A DNA stretch of 56,280 bases, the filler included, from Sphacelaria rigidula (lineage: Eukaryota): assembly GCA_964200075.2 (NCBI GenBank). It is 4 parts of 4 records of this genome, joined end to end, with 100 filler letters (N's around TTAATTAATTAA, not from the genome) between each part and the next. Parts side by side here need not be neighbours in the genome. Positions count along the whole stretch, not along the records: positions 14,098 to 28,094 come from CAXNAA020002529.1; 3 more parts are not named here. One strand, 5' to 3'. The notes below the pieces were generated by a model. The model did not search any database. It saw nothing but the letters and a program-made list of their open reading frames with translations, and was not told the DNA's origin. The position numbers and the translations under genes were made by a program. Every line of letters starts with the position of its first letter. Positions within the stretch are counted from its first letter, which is position 1. Positions 13,998 to 42,288 of this stretch are shown in pieces.

Positions 13998-14097
13998 NNN
14001 NNNNNNNNNNNNNNNNNNNNNNNNNNNNNNNNNNNNNNNNNTTAATTAATTAANNNNNNNNNNNNNNNNNNNNNNNNNNNNNNNNNNNNNNNNNNNN
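13998..14097. other. Artificial contig linker N44-TTAATTAATTAA-N44
   Basis: 100-bp spacer with stop codons in all six frames, identical at all three junctions. Confidence 0.97.
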
Positions 14098-15000
14098 TCT
14101 GGTATCGCCACTTCCCGAGACAGCCACGGCTTATACACTACCTCATGGGTCCCTCACCATGTGACTACAGAGGGGGGTTTGGATGTCGAAACACCACTTC
14201 GTCGTGTTCACGACTACGCTAGAGGTCATAAAATCGTGCGGTGGGTTGCCATCCTGGCATGACCGCACCATGGTGTGACCCCGCCCTGTACGGGCATAAG
14301 TGAAAAGGTCGCTATTGAGCCCTCCATGGACAGTTGTAGGGTGGTGCCCACAAGGTCAACTACTTGGTGATAATAGTACCGCACATCGGGCATGTGGGGA
14401 AAGATTTCGACCACACCACGGAAGGCGTCCGCATCAGATGCCCAGTACAGAGTACTGCGCAGATGTCGGAACGGTGTTTAATGTGAAGACAACAACAACA
14501 ACAACAACAACAACAAGCATAATATGCCGGAACACCACACTTCGAGCTATCGCACTATATAGGGACCTCGAATGTACCGGAAACAAATTGCGACATATGT
14601 ATTGTGTGAAGCCCAGTACACGGAGGAGTGGGGCCACTGGTGTGATACCAGATTTGCGCTTGATTCCATCAAATTCGTTCCAGACCGGGGGTCGAAATTG
14701 GCAGCACATGTGGGGAGCGGTAAAAGTAGAAAATAGGCCAAAATATAATGATCACCGCAACCTACGACAGATGCAGCAGGGACACCTATAATAGGTGATG
14801 AAAAAACACGCTCATCGAGGGTTTTTTTCGTCACCGTCGGACTAAGTTGCGAAATCATCATATACATCAAGGAACACCGTGGACTAGTGAAGAGCTCCGT
14901 ATGCTTACAGCGCAAAGAAGCGACAAAACTACGGATCGCGTGCAAGAGGTGACAGTCGAAACCACGGACCCTACCAACGCCATTTGCGCCGTATGTATAC

Positions 15001-15137
15001 CTCGACCAGCTCCATGCCGCATAGGCCTTCTTTGGCCACGCCTCCCACCAACTTGTGCGCTTCTCTCGGCAGCAGCCCTCCGGGCTCTGGCCAGCCGGTG
15101 CCAGGAACAAATGCTGCGTCTAGGGAATCGATGTCAT
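15001..15137 (-). CDS. gdmH: gdmH exon 9 (YDIDSLDAAFVPGTGWPEPGGLLPREAHKLVGGVAKEGLCGMELVE)
   Basis: Acceptor gtccag|, donor GAG|gtatac, 137 bp, phase 1/0. Contains the DxD ligands and the signature Trp. Confidence 0.95.
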
Positions 15138-18100
15138 CTGGACGACAATCATCATGATGCAGCGATGGACACAATCAGCAAGGTGGAAGTCCGCTCCAAA
15201 AAATTGCGAATAGGGACAGCCGTGTGTTGGGGTTATTGCGTCAAGTATCAAGACAAGAAAGAGCGCAGCGTAGGTCACGCGCCACAACACTCCTGGGGAA
15301 TGACGTTTGGGTTCCGCAAACGTATCACCGGGCGGTGTTACCCACGGGGTGTTGTACAACGCGCCCCGATACAGTTATTTAAATATCAATATGGTGCCGA
15401 ATAACGCCGAAAAACCATCAGCTGCGGTTATTATACAAAGTGCCGGTGTCATACCCCGTAAACTATGGTATGTTGAACAAGTGACGGGACGAACGAGCAT
15501 TTGGATGTCCCCTCAGCAATCGCCGCCCCAAGAAGTTATGCAATTCGATCCAAGAAGGACGCGCCAATCTACCCCGGTCCGCAAGGATGGCGAGGTGCTT
15601 CGCGAGGCAACAAGTCCACACTGTATCCCCGCCACAAGCCTAGGCCCTGGTGAAATAGTGCAGTACTCAGGCATCGTGCACCGCATTGACAGTGTGCGCA
15701 GCAAGAGGCAGGATGGAGAACAATCTCTATGCTCAATGCGGGTCCACAGGTGGTCCCGCAAAAGGTGCCACAAAATCGCAAGCATGAAAACCTGGCGACG
15801 CAGAGATTTACACACTGCACCGCATGTTGAAATGAGGTGTCTATGGTACAAGCCACAGGATCCAAAAATGCAATCGCGCAACAAACAATCGTACACATGA
15901 GGTGGACACGCTCCGGATTGCGTTAAAGGATTGCCATTAGCGAACCTCATCAAACACATCTATGTCACGAGCCAAAACCCGCCGGCCCGCCGGCCGTATT
16001 TATTGATGATACCACATTAGCGCACCCTAGACAATAGATTCCACTGTCAAAATGTGTACTGCGCACATTATTGACTACTGCGTCTATTGCAAAATAGACA
16101 ATAGATTCCATACCGCACGCAGTACACTTTCTGTCAATGTAATATATTGTCATCATCCACGATGTGCATGTTATGACCTGCCGTCCAGGGGTCCACTACC
16201 GTACCGAATGAAGGTGCTGTACTCACACGACATGTACACCGCGTCGCAACCATCCCACGCAGCTTCAAGCGCCATCTCGATCACCTTGTCCATGCCGAAA
16301 TCTTCCAAATCCTGTCCCGGCGGTGATACAAACAGTTGCGTAAGTGGACACTCGTGAACCCCAACGCGCTGGCGCAGCTATTTTACGATACTATACATGC
16401 GATGTGTCCGCCTGATGCTGTACCCTTCCCATGAGACACTCTCGCCATCCCGCACGACACATTCAGGGTCGGAAGACGTCTTCAGCGCGCACAAAAACTA
16501 CACACACGCGTCTCTCGGGTCCCTTGGTTGGACACAGAGAATTCTGCACCGTGATGATTCCTGTTCCACCGAGCCCACAAATGGTCGACTTGGTTGACTT
16601 CGATTTTGCTTGTTTTGTCGTACTTGAAAATTCCCCGCCACCCTTTCTCATCCGTCAGGATAAGTAGGTATAGTCTCAAAGGAATCGACCCATCGATCCT
16701 ATAGTACCTGCCTGACGAGTTTATTTGTAGTACTAGACCAGCAATGCCGCCTCCGCGCTGGCTACCATTAGACTTGTACAATCTTGCCAACGTCCGTTGT
16801 AACATTTTCAGACTGTACTACAATATATATACAAGGGTTTCGGCGGCTTACGCCGCCACGCTCAACGGATCGGTTTTCAAGATACATGAGCACTGGCGGT
16901 AGTATACGGCATTATCCTCGTACAGTACAGTAGTACATCACTACATTGTTGACGAAATACATCAGCCACAGACACCACAGCATATGTTGTACAACTGTAC
17001 GGTTCTGTACTGGCTGCAGTGTGCCGTTGAAACACCACACATGGCACCAGCATGCACACGTAGAGAACGATATCCGAGCGCACAGAACGAGCCTCGATCG
17101 TTTTTCTTCCCGGGAGAGTACTCGTATAGCAGTAAAGTATGGTAAGATGGATGAAGTGCAGCACAGTAGTATGAGTAGGGAGATATTGACCCGACAGGAT
17201 GGCGTCAACCCGTTGACAGACGGAGGTGTCCACCAGTGGAATGTGGAACGGGTAACATCTTCATCCGAAAATGAGCTGGAATTGATTGATTTGATTGATT
17301 GATTGATTGTTGCACTTTAACTGACCCCCCCAGGGATCCAGCCGTGGGGCATACGATAGACATGCCCACTACAAAACTAAACTGAAACACTTGCTGGAAA
17401 AAAAAGAAGGGACAAAAACAAAAACAAAAGACAAGGAAAAAAAAGGGAATGATGCCGATTCTACAAATGGACACCTCCGATGGCCACAGGGTCAAAACGG
17501 GCACGGCTAATTCGAGACTAGAGGGACAGGTGACGGCATTCGGAATCGCTGCAGCCGACAAAGGTAGCCGAAAGTTACGTCTAGTTGCCAAAACAGCAGA
17601 GGCGACCGAACAGATGGACGCGTACAATATATCGAACGGAACGCATCGCAACACCATATAGGCACCGCGGGACCACATGCTGACTTCATGTCCTCGGAAC
17701 CCATACAGAACGCGCCCTAAGTAAGGTGAAGTGAAATGTGGCCTATCGGCGCTTGAAGCATGATAGGAAACACCACCCAATCTAAAATCAAGTAGAGACG
17801 GAATGATTGTCAGGACTCGAGAGATGAACATGCTGGCCTTCCAGCCGACCAGAGAAATATCCGGCTGAATTCTCAGGGGAAAAGTAAATCATATATGAAT
17901 GCCATGTAATGATACTATTCCGCACTGACTTCCAGACCTGCATGGTGAAGATATTGGTCTGGCGGTCTCTCATGTTCTTCAAAGATGCGCGGGGGACCTG
18001 TCAACACGAGTCGTGCGGCGCGCAATCGAAGAGACGGATAGAGAAGAGAGTTGAGCCTTACAGGGCGCTAAGCATGGGTCAGGTGCATGGACTACACCTC

Positions 18101-21100
18101 CTGGGCACGGGACGAGCATACCAGGCTCCATCAATCAACCGCTTCATTGAGTGTTTTTTTCCGACTGACTTTCTACAAACCCAGTCGTGACGACAGGAAA
18201 GATTCACCTACGGCAAACAACCAACAGACGTAGATCGTACATGCAAAAACTCATTTCATGCCCTCAGACTAGCGCGCTTTGCCGAGCAAACCTTGAGACT
18301 GCTATAGGCCGCTACCCAAATGGAGGATCTTTCATTGGCTTTTCAACCCTTATCTTGGTGCTGGTGCTTCTGACTGATCTGCACCTGCCAGCCACCGATG
18401 CCAATCTGGACGAGGTTCTTGGCGGGCACATTGGGGATGTTCGTCGCGTGAAAGTAGGGCGTAGTGTGCATACGCTCGTCCAGGTCCTTCTCTTGGATAT
18501 CCGCGTGGCGATCGACGTGTATGATCCCGATGTTCTTCGAAGTTACCGAGGCGATCCTGGGTTGATGGAACATGACCAGTAGGACAGCCGTTACGGTCGT
18601 GGCAACGTACGTGGGCGCGAGGAGGAAGATGTGAGAAAAAGACGAATGGTGAGAACACATTACGGTCGCTTGTGGTAGCCACAGCGGGAACAGCAGCAGC
18701 AGGCGAACCACACAAGAGCCATTACAGCCACGGCAACAAAAACACAGAAATGGGCGTGCCGATGGAACGATAAAAACAAGACACAGCACTACTCCCCACT
18801 CCCACTAACCACCGACACAACCACCACTACATCCGCCACGCTTCAAAATTAAGCATTTGGCTTGTTTTGAACCTTCCACGACATGATCAGAGTATCAATG
18901 ATATTGCTACGTACTTATATAGGTATATATATATATATATATTGGCCTTCTTTAGTGAGATCACCGTCGTGGCTCATCTCCAAGTTGTTTGTTTCCACAA
19001 AACATGGGTTAGTTGTCCGTGAAGCGCAATGACTACGCACCCGCGAACGGTTGGGAAGCCGATTGAGTGATCGCCCCCCATGATGATGGGCATAGCTCCC
19101 GAAGCAGACACGTAAGCCACAGCGTTGGAGATCTGATCAAAAGTCTTTTCGATGTTGGCGGGTATTGTAAACACATCTCCGGCGTCGCACATGGTCATTT
19201 GCTCACGCAGGTCCACCCCCGTTTCGTAATTGTAAGGCGTATCTGTTGCATAAAATACACGTTACAGTACATCCGCGAAAAAGAAACACGAAACACGCGG
19301 GAGCAGACAACATGCGGAATTAGAGACAAAAACCGAGGGGGAAGCAGTAGGTGGTTACCGAAACGCAGTAAAGAAGAATGAAAAAAAAAGGTCAACGGTC
19401 GACACTCCAGTGAAACCAAGCGGTAACGGCAGGTGCAAAACACAAGGAAGACGGAACTCCAACGTGCGAACGAAGAAGAGGCGATAAAACCCGAGAGCAA
19501 AACACCAACCAAAGCCACCGGGGATTATGCATTTTTCATCAGGGTAGGGAGCATATGAAACCTCAGGTGTGGCGGAGTTGAGCCCGGGCGACACCTGAGA
19601 ATGTATGTAGCAATGCCGGTCAAACCAGTGCGTACCCTACTGGACTTGACTCGACTCCTCTTTGCGATGCGTGTTCGTCGCGGCTTTATTCGTCGATTCG
19701 GATTCATCCATACGTTGAGCAGTCAAACTCCACACTAGGATAGTATCCCGTTCACTTGATTGATAGAGGGCAAAGCGAAACCACTCGACGTAGCCAACCC
19801 AGCAACTCGTCCGCCACGCTTCAGCGCTAGTGGGTAACACTTCACATTGACGCCCACACGATGGTGTCCCATTTGCGCAATCTTTGGTAACTTGAGCATG
19901 ATTATCCACAGTCACGACAGTGTCACGTTCCGTTTGAGGTGTTTTTCAGTGATTGTTGTATTTTTCTGTCGGTGGTTCGAGTGTCCATCTAGATTTTTTC
20001 CTCACTCGGACGGAGCCGTTTCAGCTGGCGAGTATGTGAATAGTACAAGGGAGGGAGTACTCATGACCATGCATGCCATAGTCATAAGACCATTGACCTC
20101 GCGGGGGGAGGGAGGGGGGTGATGCGCACGATGCTGTGTTAGTGTCTACTATATCGGACTTGACAAAGCCATTCTTGGAGAAAAAACAGGTGGCCACATT
20201 GGGATAGTCACGGTGCCGTAGTTCGCTGAAACGGTGGTGCACATTGCTTACCAAGCTCTTGAAGTAGACTTAGTGAAGACCTTGCGTGGAGGCGTTCGGA
20301 GGGTTAGGAACTGGAAAGCAATTGTAAAAAGACCACATTTGTGCACCAAAGAAAATGCGTGCGATTGTGTATGAGGGAGGGGGGGGGGGGGCTATACATT
20401 TGTTGCTCGCCTTAGTCGTTTGACCATTGACCACGCATCCCTTTCGAGACGGAGCGTGTTTGGGTTGAGGGGGGGATTTTTTTGCATGAAATCAATAAAC
20501 GAACCGCCTTGCGTTGGTGCAGAGAAGTGATGTCGAACCTACCCGAAGTTTGAGCTCACATGTCGGAGGCCTTCCAAAGTTGTTCGGCGGTACCCCGAAG
20601 GGTGTGGAGTATCGTGCCTCTCGGGAAACAAGTGGCAAAACAAACAGGTCGAAAAATAGTGAAAATGGCCGATCTTGAACACCCTTGTCTCAAGACCAGC
20701 TCATCGGTTACCGTCGAAAAAGAGGGAAGCATGTCGTCAACTTCCCAGCAATGCCGAGATATCTGGGGAGAGAAGCAAATGGCTATGGCAACGCAGTACA
20801 CATCTCCTGTGTGTATCTTGCTATTGACGAAGTGGAGCGCGTAAGAGGTCATTTTGATTTGTCGGTGTTGCACCTAGTCTTCATTTCTCATATAATAGGC
20901 TTTCGCTTTCACTTCATTGGCGCACACGGCTCATCCACTCGCCCGTCATGTACGCATGAGGACCACAAGGTAGCTGCGCCGGCGTGGACTAACGGCTCTC
21001 TCGACTTGTGCGGGGTAAACGAGGTGTTCGAGGATCGATGTTTAGTGCGGAGGTGAAGGACGCCAAGGCCCTCTATGCCAAGATTTAGAACAAACGAGGT

Positions 21101-24100
21101 TCGACGGTCGTCGAAATGTTTCGACAGAATATCGCGGTAGGCGATGGCAAGTGCCGCGTTTTCCTTAACCTATCCGTTTAAACTGCAAGTTTTGAGATAC
21201 GGGATGCCCAGGGCTTGGGGAGCAATGGTTGTCCAGTATTGAAGACACATGAAACGCACAAATTACAACGCGAGGTACGTTTTACGCCAACTCATTGCCA
21301 AAATCCATGGTTGGCACCTACTTCATGTTATCAAAACGGCTGACCTTAGTGCAAACCACGCAAGGGATATTATGTGGCGAAAAACAGGCGCTCCGCCCGA
21401 AGTGCGAGCCGGCGGAGCTGAGCAAAAAATGCGCGCTGCACATGCTGGCGAGAACATGGAATTGTCAGCCCCCAAACGATCCTAATGTGATGTTCCGCAC
21501 CGAGAATACGTATCTTTCATCCGCAATCCTTGGCGACAGGTTGGGGTTAACTCAACTCTAGATAGAGTCCGCCCCACAAATTCAAACATACAAAAACACA
21601 CACACGCACACACTACTCCGAAATTACAACGAACACTGTACAAACTGTCCTCCTTACCGCCCTAGACATTGACCGTCGTGTACTGATAAGGTCGTCCCCG
21701 GCGGTACTATTTCGAAATGCGACATTATTTTTCTCTCTTCAGCACCGAACTCATCTCCGCAGAATCGGTTCTCGAGTCAATGCACCGGGTGGTATCCTTC
21801 CAAAATGGAACGTGTTTCGGTGCCGTTGCGACGCACCGAGCTTACTCCAGCATCCACAAGCTTTTTCATATAGTGCCATCATTAATTCTTGGGCGTGAAC
21901 ACTTTGCGCAGGGATGACGCGGATTTTATATCAACAACCCTCCGATCACAGGAAAACCGGGAGTCGACACGAGGTGGCCCATACTAGCGCGTTCTACCTG
22001 AGGGGCTTGCGTGTGGGTACAACAAACAACGAAAATACGAAGAAAAACAAACAGGCCATCATTTCCCTGACTCGAACTTGTGACCAATTTTGAAACGCTC
22101 GACAATATATATGTAACCACCAGATACATATCTGACCTCACACTTCGCATATTTCGGAGTTTTACGCCCCGACTACTTGTTGTTAACCTGAATTGACCAA
22201 GTCTTCGGAAAAGGTGACCCGTCGCTCCCGCCACTATGGCCGATTTACTTGGACTCACAGAGAGCGGAGATGCGACGGATTCCCTGAGGTCCGAAGCGGG
22301 TACCGGGTCGATAGGTGGTGCCTCCGTCGAATGGAACTCCCAGAACAGCAGCATCGTAACCCCCCACATCTCGGATGTCGTCCAGAAAAGGTGCCTGAAA
22401 TGCACAAGCCGAGTTGAGGGAATGGGAATGATGACGATCGTGAATGCACGTTGGACAATCGAGCAGGTACTGCCTTTGGTGCGTATGTGGACTTGCGACA
22501 CTGGCACGTTACGCTACGATGTAGTTGAGGAATCTCATGAAGGCCACCCTCTGCAAGATCAGTAACCCGTTCGAAAAAGGATCCTTGAAACAAGGCGCAT
22601 ACTCTTCATATCCACAATAATCTTCGGCGAACCCAATACGAGGTCGGTGACTATCTTGGGATCGGTAAATATACGGGTAAACTACGTATAATAGGTGCCC
22701 AGCGAAGTGACCCTCGAGTGTACACCATACACACCCAAGAATCGAGCACGATCTCTGCCAACACAACTTTGGGAATGAATAGGTCGATATTTCTGTCTGC
22801 CGAACACTGCCTCATCCCCTGCAGGCTACCAGTCAACCATTGCATTGATGAACAGGCGAAAAGATATGCGGTTCGAGTCCCGGCATGATCGATTGTGGAA
22901 GGAATGAGTTTGACATGTGAACAGTGAGGCTTGCGAGGGGCAAGGGCCCCCGGAGATCACTGATGTGTCATGCCGGGACGGACCGCACAGTATATTTTTG
23001 TTCAGGAAGCGAACCGTTTACCCATTGAAGAGGTGAGCGCTCACTGGTTCAATGGGTAATTTGTTCGCTTCCTGAACACAAGATTCGACAACCTTTCTCA
23101 AGTATTTAGGCCGTTTCAGCTGATCAGCAGTCGTTGTAGTGTAGATGATATGATAGACCTGAAGAAGAGTTGAGTGAACTGATCAAGCCCTTCAACTAAT
23201 CAACAACACCGCTCGCTTCAGTTGGCAGTGTCTGACCTTCATGAACGTGTTAATCCCCGCGAAATGCGGCAGCTCGCCGCGACTGAAGGTTGGGATAGTT
23301 CTGTCCACAACGGAGGACGCCGCCGGCAAGCCATGCTCCAGGCCTCTCGCCACCTGAGGTGCGGTCAGGTTCGCAGGTAAGTACGTCGTACCGTGACGGC
23401 AGCGGCTGCCCCAGCGATGAGCATTTTGCAGAAATCTCGATGGGTTATTTCAAGGATGTCGATATGTTTCGGGTGTTCAGGTATCATTATCTACTTATGG
23501 AACTCATATTGGAGGCTTGTTTATCACTCCCCGGTAAAACTGTGCGACCTTACAGGAGAACCCGAATGAGGGTACAAGCGCTGGCGGGCCGGCACTCGGG
23601 GTATCGCGTAGCGGCTTGTGCACTTGGTTCCTTCACCACGGAACGAATCCAATCGGTGCCAGCCAGAGCGTGATATTCACGACAACTTGTCAAACCAAAA
23701 CCCGCAAAAGCGACAATGCACGGCAAGCCTGCTGGACCGATCACATCGCCTGCTTCGCACGCGACACCACTGTTTTACGAGAAGCGCGTCTTGGGGAAGA
23801 GTGAAAGTGACTGGGGCCACCGCAAAGGATGACAGAAATCGTGTCCTGGGTACATACTGTAACTTGTCGTCGCTGTATGTTCGCAAGGGACACCTCATGC
23901 ACAACTGCAAATCCATGTCTATGCTCACTTTTCTTTCCATCCCACGGAACATGGACCAATGTCGGGCACACACGACTCATGACCCGTTGCTCCCGTTTTC
24001 AGTCTTGGGTGTGAGCGATGAGAAACCGTAGTAATATTTTCCATAACCGAAGGTACCTCAGGGTACTTTTCATTTATCGATTGTTGGGTTGACTGCTTAA

Positions 24101-24866
24101 TAGCCCGACATGAACTGATCGTTTGATAACGACGAATCCATTTGTGGCCAAAAGACAAAGGATTGATGTTCCCAAGGTGACCTATGTGCCTGATGAGCCG
24201 ACGCAGTTCGCTCAAATGCCACCCTACGCGACTACTGCTGTACAAAGCCATGACGTCAGATGCGCTCACCTCGGCGTCGTGAGCCACCGTAGGTAGATCC
24301 TTTTCTGCTTGGGCGGCCCTCCAGCCTTGAGTCTTCTTCCATTTCGTGGCGTTAGAATCTCCGTCATCGAAAGGCTGAACGATTGAAAAAAAACGTGAAG
24401 AACAAGTCACAAGAGTAACAACAACTGACACTTTGTACGATAGCCCCCCCCCCTCCCCAAACCCGAAAGGGATGCGTGGTCAATGGTCAAACGACTAAGG
24501 CAAGCAACAAATGAGTACGCCCCCCCCCCCTCCCCAAACCCGCCAAAAACTGTCACGGAATAAATGATCATACAGCGCCTGATGACTGGGTTTCAGGCGG
24601 CATGAGCGCCTCATACGGGCGACATTGGCGAAACCGAACCGAAGCGCGGGAATTCCCAGCTGCTCATTGTCCTCGGCTTTTGTCATTTCAATGTACGTGT
24701 GGATTTTGTCTTCCCAGACCAGCTACTTCGTTGGGGGGGGGGGGCTATCGTGAAAAGTGTCATTTACGGGTGCGTTACTTCCGAAATGATCCCGACTGGA
24801 TTCGTCACCAAGCGTGGAGTTGATAAAAGCAAGACACAGCAACACGTTAAACCATTTGAGCCCCAT
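15001..24866 (-). CDS. gdmH: Guanidine hydrolase (GdmH-type, arginase/ureohydrolase family), 9 visible exons, 3'-incomplete
   Basis: Exons 24866-24768(?), 24374-24270, 23353-23237, 22394-22259, 19242-19041, 18556-18385, 17997-17938, 16311-16227, 15137-15001. All introns are GT-AG with matching phases, giving 371 aa without stops. Motifs IPTFSRGELPHFAGINTFMK, GTTYRPGTRFGPQGIRRISALY, GGDHS, DRHAD, SYDID and PGTGWPEPGG closely resemble Synechocystis GdmH (Sll1077) as I recall it. The expected C-terminal VSPPYD.. exon was not found before the contig end at 14098. Confidence 0.9.
16227..16311 (-). CDS. gdmH: gdmH exon 8 (DLEDFGMDKVIEMALEAAWDGCDAVYMS)
   Basis: Acceptor gacag|, donor TCGT|gtgagt, 85 bp, phase 0/1. 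Confidence 0.92.
17938..17997 (-). CDS. gdmH: gdmH exon 7 (VPRASLKNMRDRQTNIFTMQ)
   Basis: Acceptor tgacag|, donor CAG|gtctgg, 60 bp, phase 0/0. Confidence 0.9.
18385..18556 (-). CDS. gdmH: gdmH exon 6 (IASVTSKNIGIIHVDRHADIQEKDLDERMHTTPYFHATN...IGIGGWQ)
   Basis: Acceptor cccag|, donor CAG|gtgcag, 172 bp, phase 2/0. Contains the DxHxD motif. Confidence 0.95.
19041..19242 (-). CDS. gdmH: gdmH exon 5 (YTPYNYETGVDLREQ...GGDHSIGFPTVR)
   Basis: Acceptor caacag|, donor GG|gtgcgt, 202 bp, phase 1/2. Contains the GGDHS metal-ligand motif. Confidence 0.95.
22259..22394 (-). CDS. gdmH: gdmH exon 4 (APFLDDIRDVGGYDAAVLGVPFDGGTTYRPGTRFGPQGIRRISAL)
   Basis: Acceptor tttcag|, donor CT|gtgagt, 136 bp, phase 0/1. 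Confidence 0.95.
22999..23078. repeat. 80-nt near-perfect foldback in gdmH intron 3
   Basis: TGTTCAGGAAGCGAAC..TTACCCATTGAA..GTGAGC|GCTCAC..TTCAATGGGTAA..GTTCGCTTCCTGAACA. Confidence 0.9.
23237..23353 (-). CDS. gdmH: gdmH exon 3 (VARGLEHGLPAASSVVDRTIPTFSRGELPHFAGINTFMK)
   Basis: Acceptor cctcag|, donor AAG|gtcaga, 117 bp. Contains the GdmH N-terminal signature. Confidence 0.93.
24270..24374 (-). CDS. gdmH: gdmH exon 2 (PFDDGDSNATKWKKTQGWRAAQAEKDLPTVAHDAE), N-terminal extension
   Basis: Acceptor ttttcaatcgttcag|, donor GAG|gtgagc, 105 bp, phase 0/0. Confidence 0.8.
24426..24762. mobile_element. MITE filling most of putative gdmH intron 1
   Basis: TIR TGACACTTT..ACGATAGCCCCCC; body homologous to 34900-35072. 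Confidence 0.7.
24768..24866 (-). CDS. gdmH: Probable gdmH exon 1, signal-peptide-like MGLKWFNVLLCLAFINSTLG-DESSRDHFGSNAP
   Basis: ATG in aaatATGG context, 33 codons, phase-0 donor CCC|gtaaat that matches the phase-0 acceptor of exon 2. No homology support. Confidence 0.5.
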
Positions 24867-25692
24867 ATTTTTTTCCCGTCGCAGTGTGAGTGTGGAGTGT
24901 TGTTTGCTCTGCTGGACAGGACTCGAAATGAATCCGAAAGCGTTACGGACCCCAATTCCAACGGCTAGGGAGCACACGAGCGCCTTGACCGGCGCCAGGG
25001 GCGTGCCGCGTGCTCCGCGTGCTCCGCTTTTTCGGCGGGTGGTCTACTGCCCATAAAAACCTCGCTCACAACTCAACACCACTCCGCCCTGCTACCACGT
25101 GATACCAAGACGTATAAACCCACTCTTTCCTGCTTCAAACAACACACGTATACGACTGCTGCGAGGCTGCTTGCGAGTTGTCCATCTCCCCATTCAAAAC
25201 CAACGAGCGAAACCAACAAGCGAAGCGGAAGGAGTGGGAGAGAAAATTGGCGAGGACGATCTCTGTCCCGGTGACCCCACCAAGGAGATCACTCATGGGG
25301 GCTGCACTATTAATAACCACAGCCACAGATGCAAGTTCAGGGCCTACTTCGCGACACTGACGGTGTGAGTCTTCCTTTTGCAGCGTTAAGATCCCACCGT
25401 GGAGGAATGCTGGGCAACCTTCGGATCACGGTAGCGGCCCGGACTTGAGTGCATGAAAATCGAGTCTCGTTCCCGGTGCAAAAACGAGAATCTCTGTTGT
25501 TGCACTACTCAAACCCGAACGAGACTCGTTTTTTTCGTTTGTCGAGCGAAACAGAATGCTCTACGAGGTTTTCCTAGACAAGTTCCTCGCGACACAAACC
25601 GTGACGCATAACAGCTCTTTCATGAAATGCTCGGGGACAGGTGCCAACAGATTCCGTCGTGTTCCGACCCCACCATCGAGTACTCAATATTT

Positions 25693-27280
25693 CCCGGTTC
25701 GGACGAATCAGAGTTCATTCGGGTTGACTCCACATGAATGTTGAATGAGAATCATGTACCAAAGAGCCATCCGTTATGAATCATGGTTGGTGAAGGTGTA
25801 TGTTCAAGGTCATACCGCATGACTGGGAATGCGTACACTCCATGAAGTATCAGACGAATCAAGGATGCAAAATATGTACGAATCACACTTCCTGTATGAA
25901 TTTTTGAGTGGGAAACATGCACACTTTTTTCATCTCGTATGAATCGAAGGTGGCGAGCATGTACGTACGAGTCATCCTGCATGAACGGAGATTTGGGAAC
26001 ACATACGCTCGATTCACCTGGTATGGATGGAAGGGGGAGAACATGTACGTATGATTCATGCTGCATGGACAGAGATTGAAAAAAATGCACGCGTGATTCA
26101 CCTCGCATGGATGGAAGGTGCAGAACGCGTGCCTATGATTCATGTTGTTTGGATGAAAGGGGGGATACATGTACGCTTGATTCACCTCGTATGGATGGAA
26201 GGTGGAAAACATGTATGCATGACTCATGCTCACGAACGCAATATGGGAAACATGTCCATGAGTCACAGGATTCATGCTGTATGGATCATGAGAAAATAAG
26301 TAGCTAGAAGAATCACTCTAGGCGCGCAGATGTGTGCTGTGCCATGCTGTACCGTACCGCCCGCGGACTGCAGATTACATTGCCGGAGTTCACTCCCGCG
26401 AGCATGCAAGGACAACTCGTGCTGATGCTGTGTTCTTCGCAAGTGCTCGTTGTATTGTGTACAACAGTATGTTGAGGTCGGCTGTATCACAAAACACAAC
26501 GTGAAACCACAAAGGCTGTCAATAGCATAGCTCGCGCGGAAAAACTGACTAAAACAAATGCTCTGGGCACGCGTCTGAGTGTGTTGTACTACCACAGTTG
26601 ATGTGTTCCGTGTGAGTACAAAAAATGAAATTGGTTTAATGATTGCGGGTTTGGCTTTTGAGAGGTCCGCGACCTATACGCTCTTATCTGCCTTCCCCAC
26701 CTGCAAAAGGGCCGCGCCACCGAATCGTCGCGCCCCATGATACAGTATGACAGGTGGGAAACAACATGTTCACACTATTTATATCATACAAACTGAAGGT
26801 GGAGAACATGTACGCATGATCCGCGCTGCAAAAATGAAAAGAGGGATACATATACACTTGATCCATCTTGTATGAATGGAAGGTAGGGAACATGTACGTG
26901 TGATTCATGCCGCATGAATGGAAGGTGGGGAACATGTGCGTATGATTCATGCTGCATGAACGGAAATTGGGAACCATGTACGCTTGATTCATCTCGCATT
27001 CATGGAAGGTGGAGAACGTGTGCCCATGGTTCATGCTGGATGAATGGGAATTGGGTAACATGTACCTATGATTCACGCCATACGAATGGAGGGTAGGTAG
27101 CATGTACCTTTGACGGTGTACCGCACGAATCACGAAGTGGGAATGTGTACACTTCAAGCGGTGCCGTACGAATCACGACCCCAAAACATGTACAAATCAC
27201 AACTTGTGTACGAATCGTATGATTGATTCGTACAAATGTTGAATATGAGTCGAATCATGATTTTATTTGTCCGAACCGTG
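25693..27280. mobile_element. Non-autonomous CAC..GTG (CMC-like) DNA transposon with internal 42-bp tandem repeats
   Basis: TIR C(C/A)CGGTTCGGAC / GTCCGAACCGTG. 42-bp units at about 25790-26285 and 26745-27110. Related copy at 45794-46386. Confidence 0.7.
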
Positions 27281-28094
27281 CAATGTTTTCGTTAAATCCA
27301 TACTGTGACCTTTGTTCAGATGCTGGGCTACACATCCTAGTGCCTTGTAGTTTTGACCTGAACGATGGCCTACTCAGCCAACGCCCCCTGAACAAACGTC
27401 GGAGCCCTTGCTCGTGAAACAATACGAGCTGGGCCAGCTTAAAAGCGGCCAAACGTTGTCGACACTACAGCTTTCCCAGTTTCCCGAATAAACCCGATGT
27501 AAGCGTATCACTGTGAAGTGCAGACCAACCTGGTAACAAACGGTACCGCCGCTGAATGTAGAAAAAAAATAGAAAAAAATATGTACTGCATAATATATAA
27601 CCTTATCGACGGACGAAAAAAAAAAGAGAATCTGTCGGGATCCGAACTCATGATCTCCATAATTGGAGTCTCCTATCACTTGAACAACATGGTAGCAGCA
27701 GCGCCACCCAAAACGTTGCACGCACGGCCCTATTCTACGACTCTTGAGCTGAAATTTCACGAAGATCTTCTGCACCCAAGGAAGTGGTACATCACGGGAG
27801 CAGCTGGAGATTCTCGTTTTTTTCCCTGGACTTATGACATTATCTTGTTTTTGCTGAAAGTTCAAATCTCCATACCTTCCTTTTTTCCTTATTTTCTTTG
27901 CTGCTCTCGTCATATTCCGCATGTCGATCATAATAAGCTGCTGCCAAAATTGCAGCGTCCAACCCCTGAAATCACGCTGTGCGTCGCCTGAGCGCGAAAA
28001 CTACCCACTGACTGCTGGCGCGATAGCCCCCCCCCCGAACCGGCCAAAAGAGTGCACGGAGGCGATGATCGTAATTACCTTTGGAGCTGGTTTC

Positions 28095-28194
28095 NNNNNN
28101 NNNNNNNNNNNNNNNNNNNNNNNNNNNNNNNNNNNNNNTTAATTAATTAANNNNNNNNNNNNNNNNNNNNNNNNNNNNNNNNNNNNNNNNNNNN
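28095..28194. other. Artificial contig linker
   Basis: Same 100-bp spacer. Confidence 0.97.
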
Positions 28195-36042: not shown

Positions 36043-37499
36043 TCACAAAGAAATACCATACTCCGACGCTAATTTACTGGTCAGCGCCCGAGTCAACCGC
36101 ACTTCACGCACTTCCTTCAAAACAAATTCAGGCACAGAAGAATGAATCTTGCGAAGAAACTCCCACGTACGTTCTTCAGCACCGAACCCTTCCCAATTGA
36201 TCAAAACAATGGCATCACCATTGTCCTCCTCAGCGACGTGCACCAAAGCCTTCATCCGACATTCACCTTGAGCATACGAATGTTGAAATACATTTTTTAG
36301 TTCCGCAGTGATGTGCAACTGCGAGTCAGCATAGAAACATGAACGAACGACATGGGCCAAGTGCACGGCACCAGGAACAATGTTCTGCACCGAATACACG
36401 TGAGCGTGATCGGCTCCGACCACTCGCCACGGACCTGTCCACGTGGACATCAACCTTGGCGTCATACCTTGCCTCCGAACACGGGCATACAATACGAAAT
36501 CGCCAACTGCAAACTTGGGCAACATAGCCTGACCCTGAGCAAGCTTGCGTTTGGTTTCGCGGAACACCGCGACAGCAGCTTGCACTTCGTTACAAAACCG
36601 CACTTGCTCGTCAACCACGCCTCGAACCTTGTTACGCAACGAATCAGCATCAATGACATCGACGTTCCACTCGCCGCCAGTGACAGAAGCCAGCGCGGAA
36701 AACGCTGTACGCGGTGTACGCCCAAACATCACACAATGCGGGGTGTAACGGTAGCCTTCACGAAAAGAAGTATTCAACGTCCACTGGGCGGCTGGCAAAA
36801 CATCAACCCATTCAGACACCCGCCGTTGCTGTTCCGACAAAATAGACCGCAACGCACGAATAACCTCTTTCACCATGCGTTTACAAGCACCATTCGACCA
36901 AGGGGTATACGCAACAGCAAATTGGGGTTGCACCTTCAGCACATCGCTCAGCTGCGCGATCACTCGATTCTTGAAGTGTGTGGCGGTATCACTAACCCAA
37001 ACACGTGGCACCCGCAAAGTCTTGCCCCAATGGAGCAAGTGCTTAGCCGTAACCTCGGCGGTGCAAGCCTCGGTCGGCTCCAAGCAAACGAAATTCGACA
37101 AAGCATCCATGATAACCAAAACGTACCGAAAACCATCCTCCTCAGGCAAACCATTAGCACCTTCAGGTCCACTACTTCCGACGTACAGAAATCAAAGTGA
37201 ACAACTTCACCTGACACAGTGCCGTGCACAGTATCGCCATACGGACGAGGTACAATCGCACCAGCATGAGTGTCTGCACAATGCAAGCACTGGCGAACGA
37301 ACTCGCGAACCTGCGAATCCATGTGAGGCCACACACAGTATTCTTTCAAACGAAACCAAGTCGGCGCCACACCACGGTGACCAGCCGGCCGCATGTGAGC
37401 GCACACCATCAAGCGGGTTTGTAGAACCTTATCATCTGACGGAATCCACAAAACATCACCACTGCCCACACGCCCGCGAAACAAACCATCATCAGCCAA
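36043..37499 (-). pseudogene. Gypsy integrase with HHCC zinc finger, DD(E>K) core, GPY/F and chromodomain; one frameshift
   Basis: AHMRPAGHRG..CLHC, VHFDF, WVSDTATHF, NGACKRM, WTGPWRV, INWEGFGAEERTWE. Confidence 0.9.
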
Positions 37500-42188: not shown

Positions 42189-42288
42189 NNNNNNNNNNNN
42201 NNNNNNNNNNNNNNNNNNNNNNNNNNNNNNNNTTAATTAATTAANNNNNNNNNNNNNNNNNNNNNNNNNNNNNNNNNNNNNNNNNNNN
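42189..42288. other. Artificial contig linker
   Basis: Same 100-bp spacer. Confidence 0.97.

Follow-up and report, generated by a model that had tools for sequence, protein, structure and literature searches.

A spliced gene of the brown alga Sphacelaria rigidula that probably encodes a GdmH-type guanidine hydrolase

The closest described counterparts of the gene examined here are two bacterial enzymes, the Ni2+-dependent guanidine hydrolase GdmH (Sll1077) of Synechocystis sp. PCC 6803 and the guanidinase of Nitrospira inopinata. An N-terminal extension ahead of the arginase core is said, after the work of Funck and colleagues in 2022, to be a feature of GdmH. For the N. inopinata enzyme, the available excerpt of Palatinszky et al. 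(PMC11410670) gives Thr105, His222 and Trp313 as guanidinase criteria and also marks Glu344; it reports that this guanidinase works without known nickel chaperones, and states as an open point how guanidinases lacking HypA and HypB are loaded with nickel. Papers on diatoms and Ectocarpus, as far as their excerpts extend, treat 'agmatinase' within urea-cycle or stress metabolism (PMC2718500, PMC7542463, PMC5156380, PMC13248578), and no eukaryotic enzyme that hydrolyses free guanidine was found in the literature searched (main texts; subscription papers fell mostly outside). Here a spliced gene of the same family is described from the brown alga Sphacelaria rigidula (assembly GCA_964200075.2); it lies on the minus strand of the window, that is, of the whole 56,280-nucleotide stretch that was analysed.

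The reading favoured here is that this is an intact, expressed, single-copy, nuclear, brown-algal gene, that it encodes a GdmH-type guanidine hydrolase as judged by family placement, and that its product would hydrolyse guanidine; taken as a whole, this is given a probability of roughly 0.75. An earlier note on the window had already read the locus as a guanidine hydrolase gene, a reading that is supported, and its observations hold apart from the first exon. What is new is an added member of a known family, and the gene itself is unsurprising; value is added by the splice evidence, a probable mitochondrial leader, a chaperone-less subclade and the re-annotation of algal 'agmatinases'.

Splicing and family placement

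Eight exons between 24374 and 15001, each bounded by AG acceptor and GT donor ends, join in phase into 338 codons without a stop, just as the earlier note had proposed; in the 5' to 3' direction of the gene the introns measure 916, 842, 3016, 484, 387, 1626 and 1089 nt (Table 1). Four public runs were compared over 14560-25750, three of them RNA-like (X1-X3) and one DNA-like (X5), where 'RNA' status is the tool's guess rather than a recorded attribute and the runs are called RNA-like because exons are joined in them. X1, X2 and X3 each have one contig (depth 37-64) that contains all seven GT-AG joints, and X5 has none of the seven, so the joints are not due to chance. Spliced transcripts of the gene appear to exist, and the RNA check of the junctions, which the earlier note had proposed, yields no evidence for an untranscribed gene. 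'Hidden', as that note called it, the gene is from the open reading frame (ORF) track but not from the databases: the NCBI entry CAM9317964.1 (P0002, 'unnamed protein product, partial [Sphacelaria rigidula]') agrees with the spliced window protein at every one of the 338 residues, past which its nine further residues read into the next intron. A gene model is thus already in NCBI, without a function assigned.

The family assignment rests on several kinds of comparison. A search of the PDB returns Synechocystis GdmH (7ESR/7OI1) at E 5.9e-146 and the N. inopinata guanidinase (9FEK) at E 1.6e-145, the next family, guanidinobutyrase, following at E 4.8e-43; entries for the same two enzymes are the top structural matches of a fold model of the Ectocarpus orthologue, whose mean predicted local distance difference test score (pLDDT) is 74. 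All four guanidinase markers (Thr, His, Trp and Glu) are present in the window protein, with equivalents read from the PDB alignments (the PDB chain numbers, counted by hand, are 2 higher), and all six dinuclear-metal ligands are kept. The motifs singled out in the earlier note are where it placed them: GGDHS, DRHAD and SYDID, the last straddling the 16227/15137 junction, as well as the extension IPTFSRGELPH and the Trp-bearing PGTGWPEPGG. This pocket Trp is absent in the eight motif-readable members of ten outgroup ureohydrolases. The extension is also evident from the alignments, which begin at residue 14 of 7ESR and residue 26 of 9FEK, whereas those with other ureohydrolases begin at query residue 59 or later.

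Profile scores point the same way. For the partial window protein and the full-length Ectocarpus orthologue, respectively, the agmatinase model TIGR01230 gives 133.8 and 153.3 bits against a cut-off of 174.3, the agmatinase model PRK02190 gives 178 and 204.9 against 302, and the arginase model TIGR01229 gives 123.6 and 130.2 bits against 227.6. In a tree, the window protein falls within a 78-row clade of cyanobacterial-type and riboswitch-linked proteins, set apart from distant ureohydrolases with a Shimodaira-Hasegawa-like approximate likelihood ratio (SH-aLRT) support of 99; the outgroup consists of unnamed distant ureohydrolases, and named agmatinases were compared outside the tree, by search score. 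Tree, PDB search, fold match and score cut-offs thus place the protein with guanidine hydrolases rather than agmatinases, as had been predicted. Ten brown-algal orthologues share 95-97% identity with it. Elsewhere in the assembly are an exon of a separate canonical-arginase-like gene (L107, G000:C2181:4594-4848) and three urease alpha-like exons (L108-L110, G000:C17072); accordingly the gene described here need not act as an arginase, and urea is usable further.

The contig that carries the gene (14098-28094; G000:C2529) belongs to a 244-Mb assembly of 27,214 contigs and holds all eight genome matches of an orthologue query. Both ends of the gene lie beyond it. On the 5' side the spliced contigs reach 154, 386 and 161 nt beyond 24374, on the 3' side 1318-1465 nt beyond 15001, and RNA-like depth is 0 across 14560-14933, so the transcript continues into exons outside 14560-25750; the absence of the last exon had been anticipated. 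Neither the last 46 residues of the Ectocarpus orthologue nor a degenerate pattern retrieved that exon when used as queries against the fragmented assembly. At the other end, no minus frame of 24375-28094 contains HHP, a motif that ends the orthologues' leaders, and tblastn of orthologue leaders against this segment gives matches at chance level only; the pattern A-R-x-H-H-P-S/T followed by GT has three matches in the assembly against three in a control, none with a Met-started leader. One candidate leader exon, L113, was rejected: read by eye, it sits inside an intron of a glutathione-reductase-like gene. That gene (L113:1530-1920, minus strand, likewise read by eye) has an N-terminal targeting stretch of its own.

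Table 1. Exons and flanking segments of the candidate guanidine hydrolase gene, in window coordinates
Feature	Position	Strand	Observation
Probable part of first intron, to contig end	24375..28094	-	True leader exon not found here
Proposed first exon, judged intronic and outside the main transcript	24768..24866	-	No listed joint; unspliced cover only
First exon on contig, 105 nt	24270..24374	-	Start of N-terminal extension, directly after the orthologues' HHPS; joint 23350/24267 in 3/3 RNA-like runs
Exon, 117 nt	23237..23353	-	GdmH-type N-terminal extension with IPTFSRGELPH
Exon, 136 nt	22259..22394	-	Thr equivalent to Synechocystis T97 / N. inopinata T105, codon 22316-22314
Exon, 202 nt	19041..19242	-	Metal-ligand His of GGDHS, 19069-19067
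Exon, 172 nt	18385..18556	-	DRHAD ligands (Asp, His, Asp) 18513-18499; His equivalent to N. inopinata H222, 18468-18466
Exon, 60 nt	17938..17997	-	Phase, GT/AG ends and RNA-like joints
Exon, 85 nt	16227..16311	-	End falls within the SYDID motif
Last exon on contig, 137 nt	15001..15137	-	Two Asp ligands (15135, 15129), then GT donor
Same last exon, specificity residues	15001..15137	-	Trp equivalent to W305/W313 at 15093-15091; Glu equivalent to N. inopinata E344 at 15003-15001
Part of last visible intron, cut by contig end	14098..15000	-	Exon for the C-terminal ~45 residues absent from stretch translations

The window consists of four unrelated contigs of about 14 kb each, separated by N-linkers (13998-14097, 28095-28194 and 42189-42288; core TTAATTAATTAA), so that gene order across the linkers is uninformative. 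Two of the gene's introns hold a very high-copy dispersed repeat (about 20050-20455 and 24430-24535; depth above 400,000 in the DNA-like run), and the probable first intron holds degenerate 42-bp tandem arrays of about seven copies each (25929-26230 and 26795-27107). On another contig, a 382-residue open frame (36046-37191, minus strand) with a weak match to the integrase core PF00665 (E 7.9e-5, below the cut-off) is probably a retrotransposon remnant.

Eukaryotic members and bacterial relatives

Homologues in heterokont algae were reportedly predicted by Funck and colleagues in 2022. The eukaryotic group found here comprises brown algae, Phaeothamnion, diatoms, the haptophytes Diacronema and Phaeocystis, and the green alga Bathycoccus; the heterokont occurrence raised in the earlier note is thereby borne out, but a limitation to heterokonts is not. 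The 'agmatinase' EEC43644.1 of Phaeodactylum tricornutum, which we take to be Phatr3_J40880, lies in this clade and shows all seven motifs checked, and both the Thr and the pocket-narrowing Trp are kept in all six other eukaryotic members checked. Database entries for the orthologues are labelled 'agmatinase' or 'unnamed', in line with the expectation that automatic annotation would call the protein an agmatinase. In Ectocarpus siliculosus the orthologue is split into two 'agmatinase' models (P0121/P0128; CBJ32649.1 and CBJ32650.1) at the junction matching 19041/18556. Haptophyte or green-algal members may already figure in published guanidinase trees or tables (PMC11410670, Funck et al.).

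Relationships within the family were examined with quick trees of 88, 58 and 41 rows, thinned by hand through dropping near-duplicates and long outgroups; the two characterised enzymes are not among the rows. Eukaryotes group together with support of 89 and 97 in two of these trees and are unresolved in another; they stand beside a bacterial-type clade in which SAR324 is the sole named member (support 98-99), and the cyanobacteria form a separate long branch. Identity to the window protein is 71-78% for the proteobacterial/SAR324 set, as against 60-68% for 120 cyanobacterial-type proteins. The algal gene thus probably derives from a proteobacterial or SAR324-type lineage without GhaA/GhaB, rather than from the plastid ancestor, as far as such sequence comparisons indicate. 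Of the earlier view that this is a bacteria-type enzyme in an intronised nuclear gene, the spliced, GdmH-type part stands, while the nearest relatives are proteobacterial/SAR324-type and not Synechocystis-type.

The bacterial comparison covers the 80 best of 558 loci (L023-L102), mostly from Alpha- and Gammaproteobacteria, with a SAR324 genome ranking first. R-x-HHP occurs in 71 of these 80 loci, against none of the 120 cyanobacterial-type proteins, and DRHAD and MHTTP each occur in all 80. A Guanidine-I riboswitch lies upstream on the same strand in 11 of 13 loci scanned with Rfam; in the whole window Rfam gives no match at all (the gene's true 5' end being off the contig), and the riboswitch characterises the operon rather than the enzyme. 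Among 107 hand-picked ORFs of 16 bacterial loci, Pfam identifies NMT1-type ATP-binding cassette (ABC) transporters, urease genes and nickel transporters, and neither HypA nor HypB. A motif scan, which had no positive control locus, finds HypA/HypB patterns in none of the 80 loci and UreG-type patterns in six. Among 32 close bacterial whole genomes, selected for long contigs (three are titled chromosome or complete genome), HypA is absent from 15.

A His-rich partner motif is found in 32 of the 80 loci. A divergent ORF of this kind in SAR324 (L023:9702-10151) is found five genes further downstream than the hydrolase, past an ABC transporter and two STAS genes. No eukaryotic label appears among the best 120 of 1310 homologues of the partner (a set biased to close matches, with the Sphacelaria assembly outside the search), and its Atlas matches are all below 0.9. 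Viral relatives were looked for and none was found; GdmH-like genes occur on 11 plasmid records (H1-H11), five of which are Sinorhizobium fredii replicons. As to possible metal chaperones in the alga, none of 13 CobW-family matches in its assembly has a HypB-type motif, and they are read as CobW-type; at least five contigs (L010-L022) carry exons of CobW-type (GCxCC) metal GTPases, none read as HypB or UreG.

Leader, proposed function and alternatives

An Arg-rich, acid-poor leader with an R-2 cleavage site fits a mitochondrial presequence. Across 28 eukaryotic or eukaryote-like proteins, the segment ahead of HHP is 26 residues long in the median and 1.2% acidic, and it carries Arg at -2 in 27; the net charge of all 11 named eukaryotic leaders lies between +4 and +7, and each has Arg two positions ahead of HHP, with a median net charge of +6 and a hydrophobic moment of 0.65, as compared with +4 and 0.44 for 73 bacterial leaders. 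Import into mitochondria through this leader, judged from the orthologues since the first exon is off the contig, is somewhat favoured. In the AlphaFold model of the Ectocarpus orthologue, pLDDT stays below 50 over the leader and HHP motif, so that the model is uninformative on the latter. A bolder suggestion is that brown algae, diatoms, haptophytes and Bathycoccus share a single mitochondrial enzyme of bacterial descent, catalogued as agmatinase, in which removal of the leader at R-x|His-His-Pro exposes a conserved, nickel-binding His-His that replaces GhaA/GhaB; this is unlikely, and the nickel-binding role is speculation. If true, it would provide a chaperone-independent nickel route for guanidine use in eukaryotic algae.

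The proposed sequence of events runs as follows. The mRNA is spliced, as the data show. The protein would then be imported into mitochondria and, like the characterised bacterial enzymes, with which it shares the conserved ligands, may form a homohexamer that binds two metals (Ni, or Ni/Mn). Free guanidine would be hydrolysed to urea and ammonium, as is suggested by the Thr/Trp pocket, the riboswitch-linked relatives and the bacterial enzymes; by analogy with the latter, the N-terminal extension and the Trp would constrict the pocket so as to disfavour agmatine and arginine; and the urease of the alga would complete the breakdown.

Several observations weigh against this account. The RNA-like runs all come from one study. 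A query with an orthologue leader did not find the leader exon in the S. rigidula assembly. The bacterial leaders are Arg-rich too, with Arg at -2 in 68 of 73 (they are shorter and, at 7.7%, more acidic), so that the Arg -2 motif is ancestral and no proof of mitochondrial import. With an approximately unbiased (AU) test, a single clade of eukaryotes and cyanobacteria is not rejected (p=0.219); a non-plastid origin, which the tree shape, the identity values and the shared motifs favour, is thus not proven. The nearest named bacterial locus, that of SAR324 (L023), has no riboswitch match, and neither has L057. HypA gives no match in the algal assembly, a weak negative, as is that for UreG, given the low sensitivity of such searches in an intron-rich, fragmented genome: UreG was missed although urease exons are present. 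Finally, data on activity, metal or localisation of any algal member were not found in the literature searched.

The alternatives differ in which part of the account they would replace. That the locus is bacterial contamination or a dead gene fragment might be argued from the 71-78% identity to bacterial proteins and from the terminal exons not found in the assembly, but seven spliced GT-AG introns, the 95-97% identity of the brown-algal orthologues, the assembly's 27,214 contigs and spliced contigs that reach past both missing ends leave this reading largely refuted and its probability negligible. The probable first exon of the earlier note (24866-24768) would, if its ATG were real, make the enzyme secreted or targeted to the endoplasmic reticulum; it has an in-frame ATG, a signal-peptide-like hydrophobic stretch and a phase-0 GT at 24767. 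Against it, no splice joint is among the joints listed (133 weaker ones lie outside that list) and its cover consists of unspliced pieces at an intron-like depth of 2-4, compared with 37-64 for the spliced contigs; moreover, in each of the five full-length brown-algal orthologues the equivalent of the 24374 exon is immediately preceded by a basic leader of unrelated sequence that closes with HHPS, and 24866-24768 contains no HHP. This segment is most likely intronic, and a secreted enzyme very improbable.

Less remote, though still unlikely, is that the algal enzyme, since algae lack GhaA/GhaB, has moved to manganese or to another guanidino substrate and is agmatinase-like or broad. The lack of HypA and of HypB-type motifs would fit, as would the orthologues' database label, and mislabelling is frequent among ureohydrolases, whichever way the error runs (PMC9772407, as excerpted); but the pocket Trp and Thr are kept throughout the eukaryotic members checked, scores fall under the agmatinase cut-offs, HypA is missing from 15 of the 32 close bacterial genomes as well, and the N. 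inopinata guanidinase is active without known chaperones (PMC11410670, excerpt). A different kind of alternative leaves the enzyme assignment untouched and competes only with use as a nitrogen source: the same enzyme may recycle or remove guanidine of internal origin, such as that released by arginine or homoarginine hydroxylases, instead of scavenging it from seawater. Plants and green algae produce guanidine via 2-ODD-C23 enzymes (excerpt of PMC11018352), a mitochondrial location would suit, and the excerpt of PMC5156380 has the P. tricornutum 'agmatinase' gene up at night together with urease and arginase; the bacterial relatives, against this, are clearly uptake-coupled. Internal recycling fits the evidence as well as external guanidine use does, and is held as a tentative possibility a little short of even chances.

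If the assignment as a guanidine hydrolase is true, major primary producers of the sea either rival bacteria for guanidine or re-use what they make themselves; wherever urea-cycle maps of stramenopiles (PMC7542463, PMC5156380) mean the same gene by their 'agmatinase' step, that step would have to be reassigned; and, next to urease and nickel superoxide dismutase, algae would possess one more nickel enzyme. The clade sharpens the open point of nickel supply in guanidinases without HypA/HypB (PMC11410670), and the question is directly testable in Phaeodactylum, which has the orthologue and is editable.

Comparison with known systems

Compared with Synechocystis GdmH (7ESR, 7OI1), the algal protein is alike in its N-terminal extension, its six ligands and its equivalents of T97 and W305. 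It differs in that the gene is nuclear and intron-containing, with no riboswitch found in the window; in that its orthologues have a leader and the R-x-HHP motif missing from the cyanobacterial-type proteins (0/120), and MHTTP rather than MHTCP; and in that GhaA/GhaB, encoded with GdmH in gdmH-ghaA-ghaB, were not found in the alga by a weak search. The N. inopinata guanidinase (9FEK) has equivalents of T105, H222, W313 and E344 all in the algal protein and, as its excerpted description has it (PMC11410670), shares the lack of known nickel chaperones; the algal gene is eukaryotic and spliced, and the alignment starts beyond the first 25 residues of the bacterial enzyme.

Other ureohydrolases--SpeB agmatinase, guanidinobutyrase, proclavaminate amidinohydrolase and the metformin/dimethylguanidine hydrolases--have the ureohydrolase fold and the two-metal ligands in common with the algal protein, but at E 1e-43 to 1e-26 their matches are about 100 orders weaker than that to GdmH, and guanidinobutyrase has PGTGTPE at the Trp position. 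Metformin/dimethylguanidine hydrolases, which according to the excerpt of PMC11399263 are tandem alpha/beta paralogues forming a heterohexamer, match at E of only about 1e-30 to 1e-33, and in the alga the orthologue matches lie on a single contig with no such tandem paralogy seen.

The riboswitch-controlled proteobacterial/SAR324 genes are the closest prokaryotic relatives and have R-x-HHP, DRHAD and MHTTP in common with the algal genes; unlike these, they share operons with genes for ABC transporters, urease or nickel transport, in 32 of 80 cases with the His-rich partner motif. In the literature consulted, none of them is reported as characterised. EEC43644.1 of Phaeodactylum and CBJ32649.1/CBJ32650.1 of Ectocarpus, finally, belong to the same clade as the Sphacelaria protein, and the difference lies in the 'agmatinase' label only.

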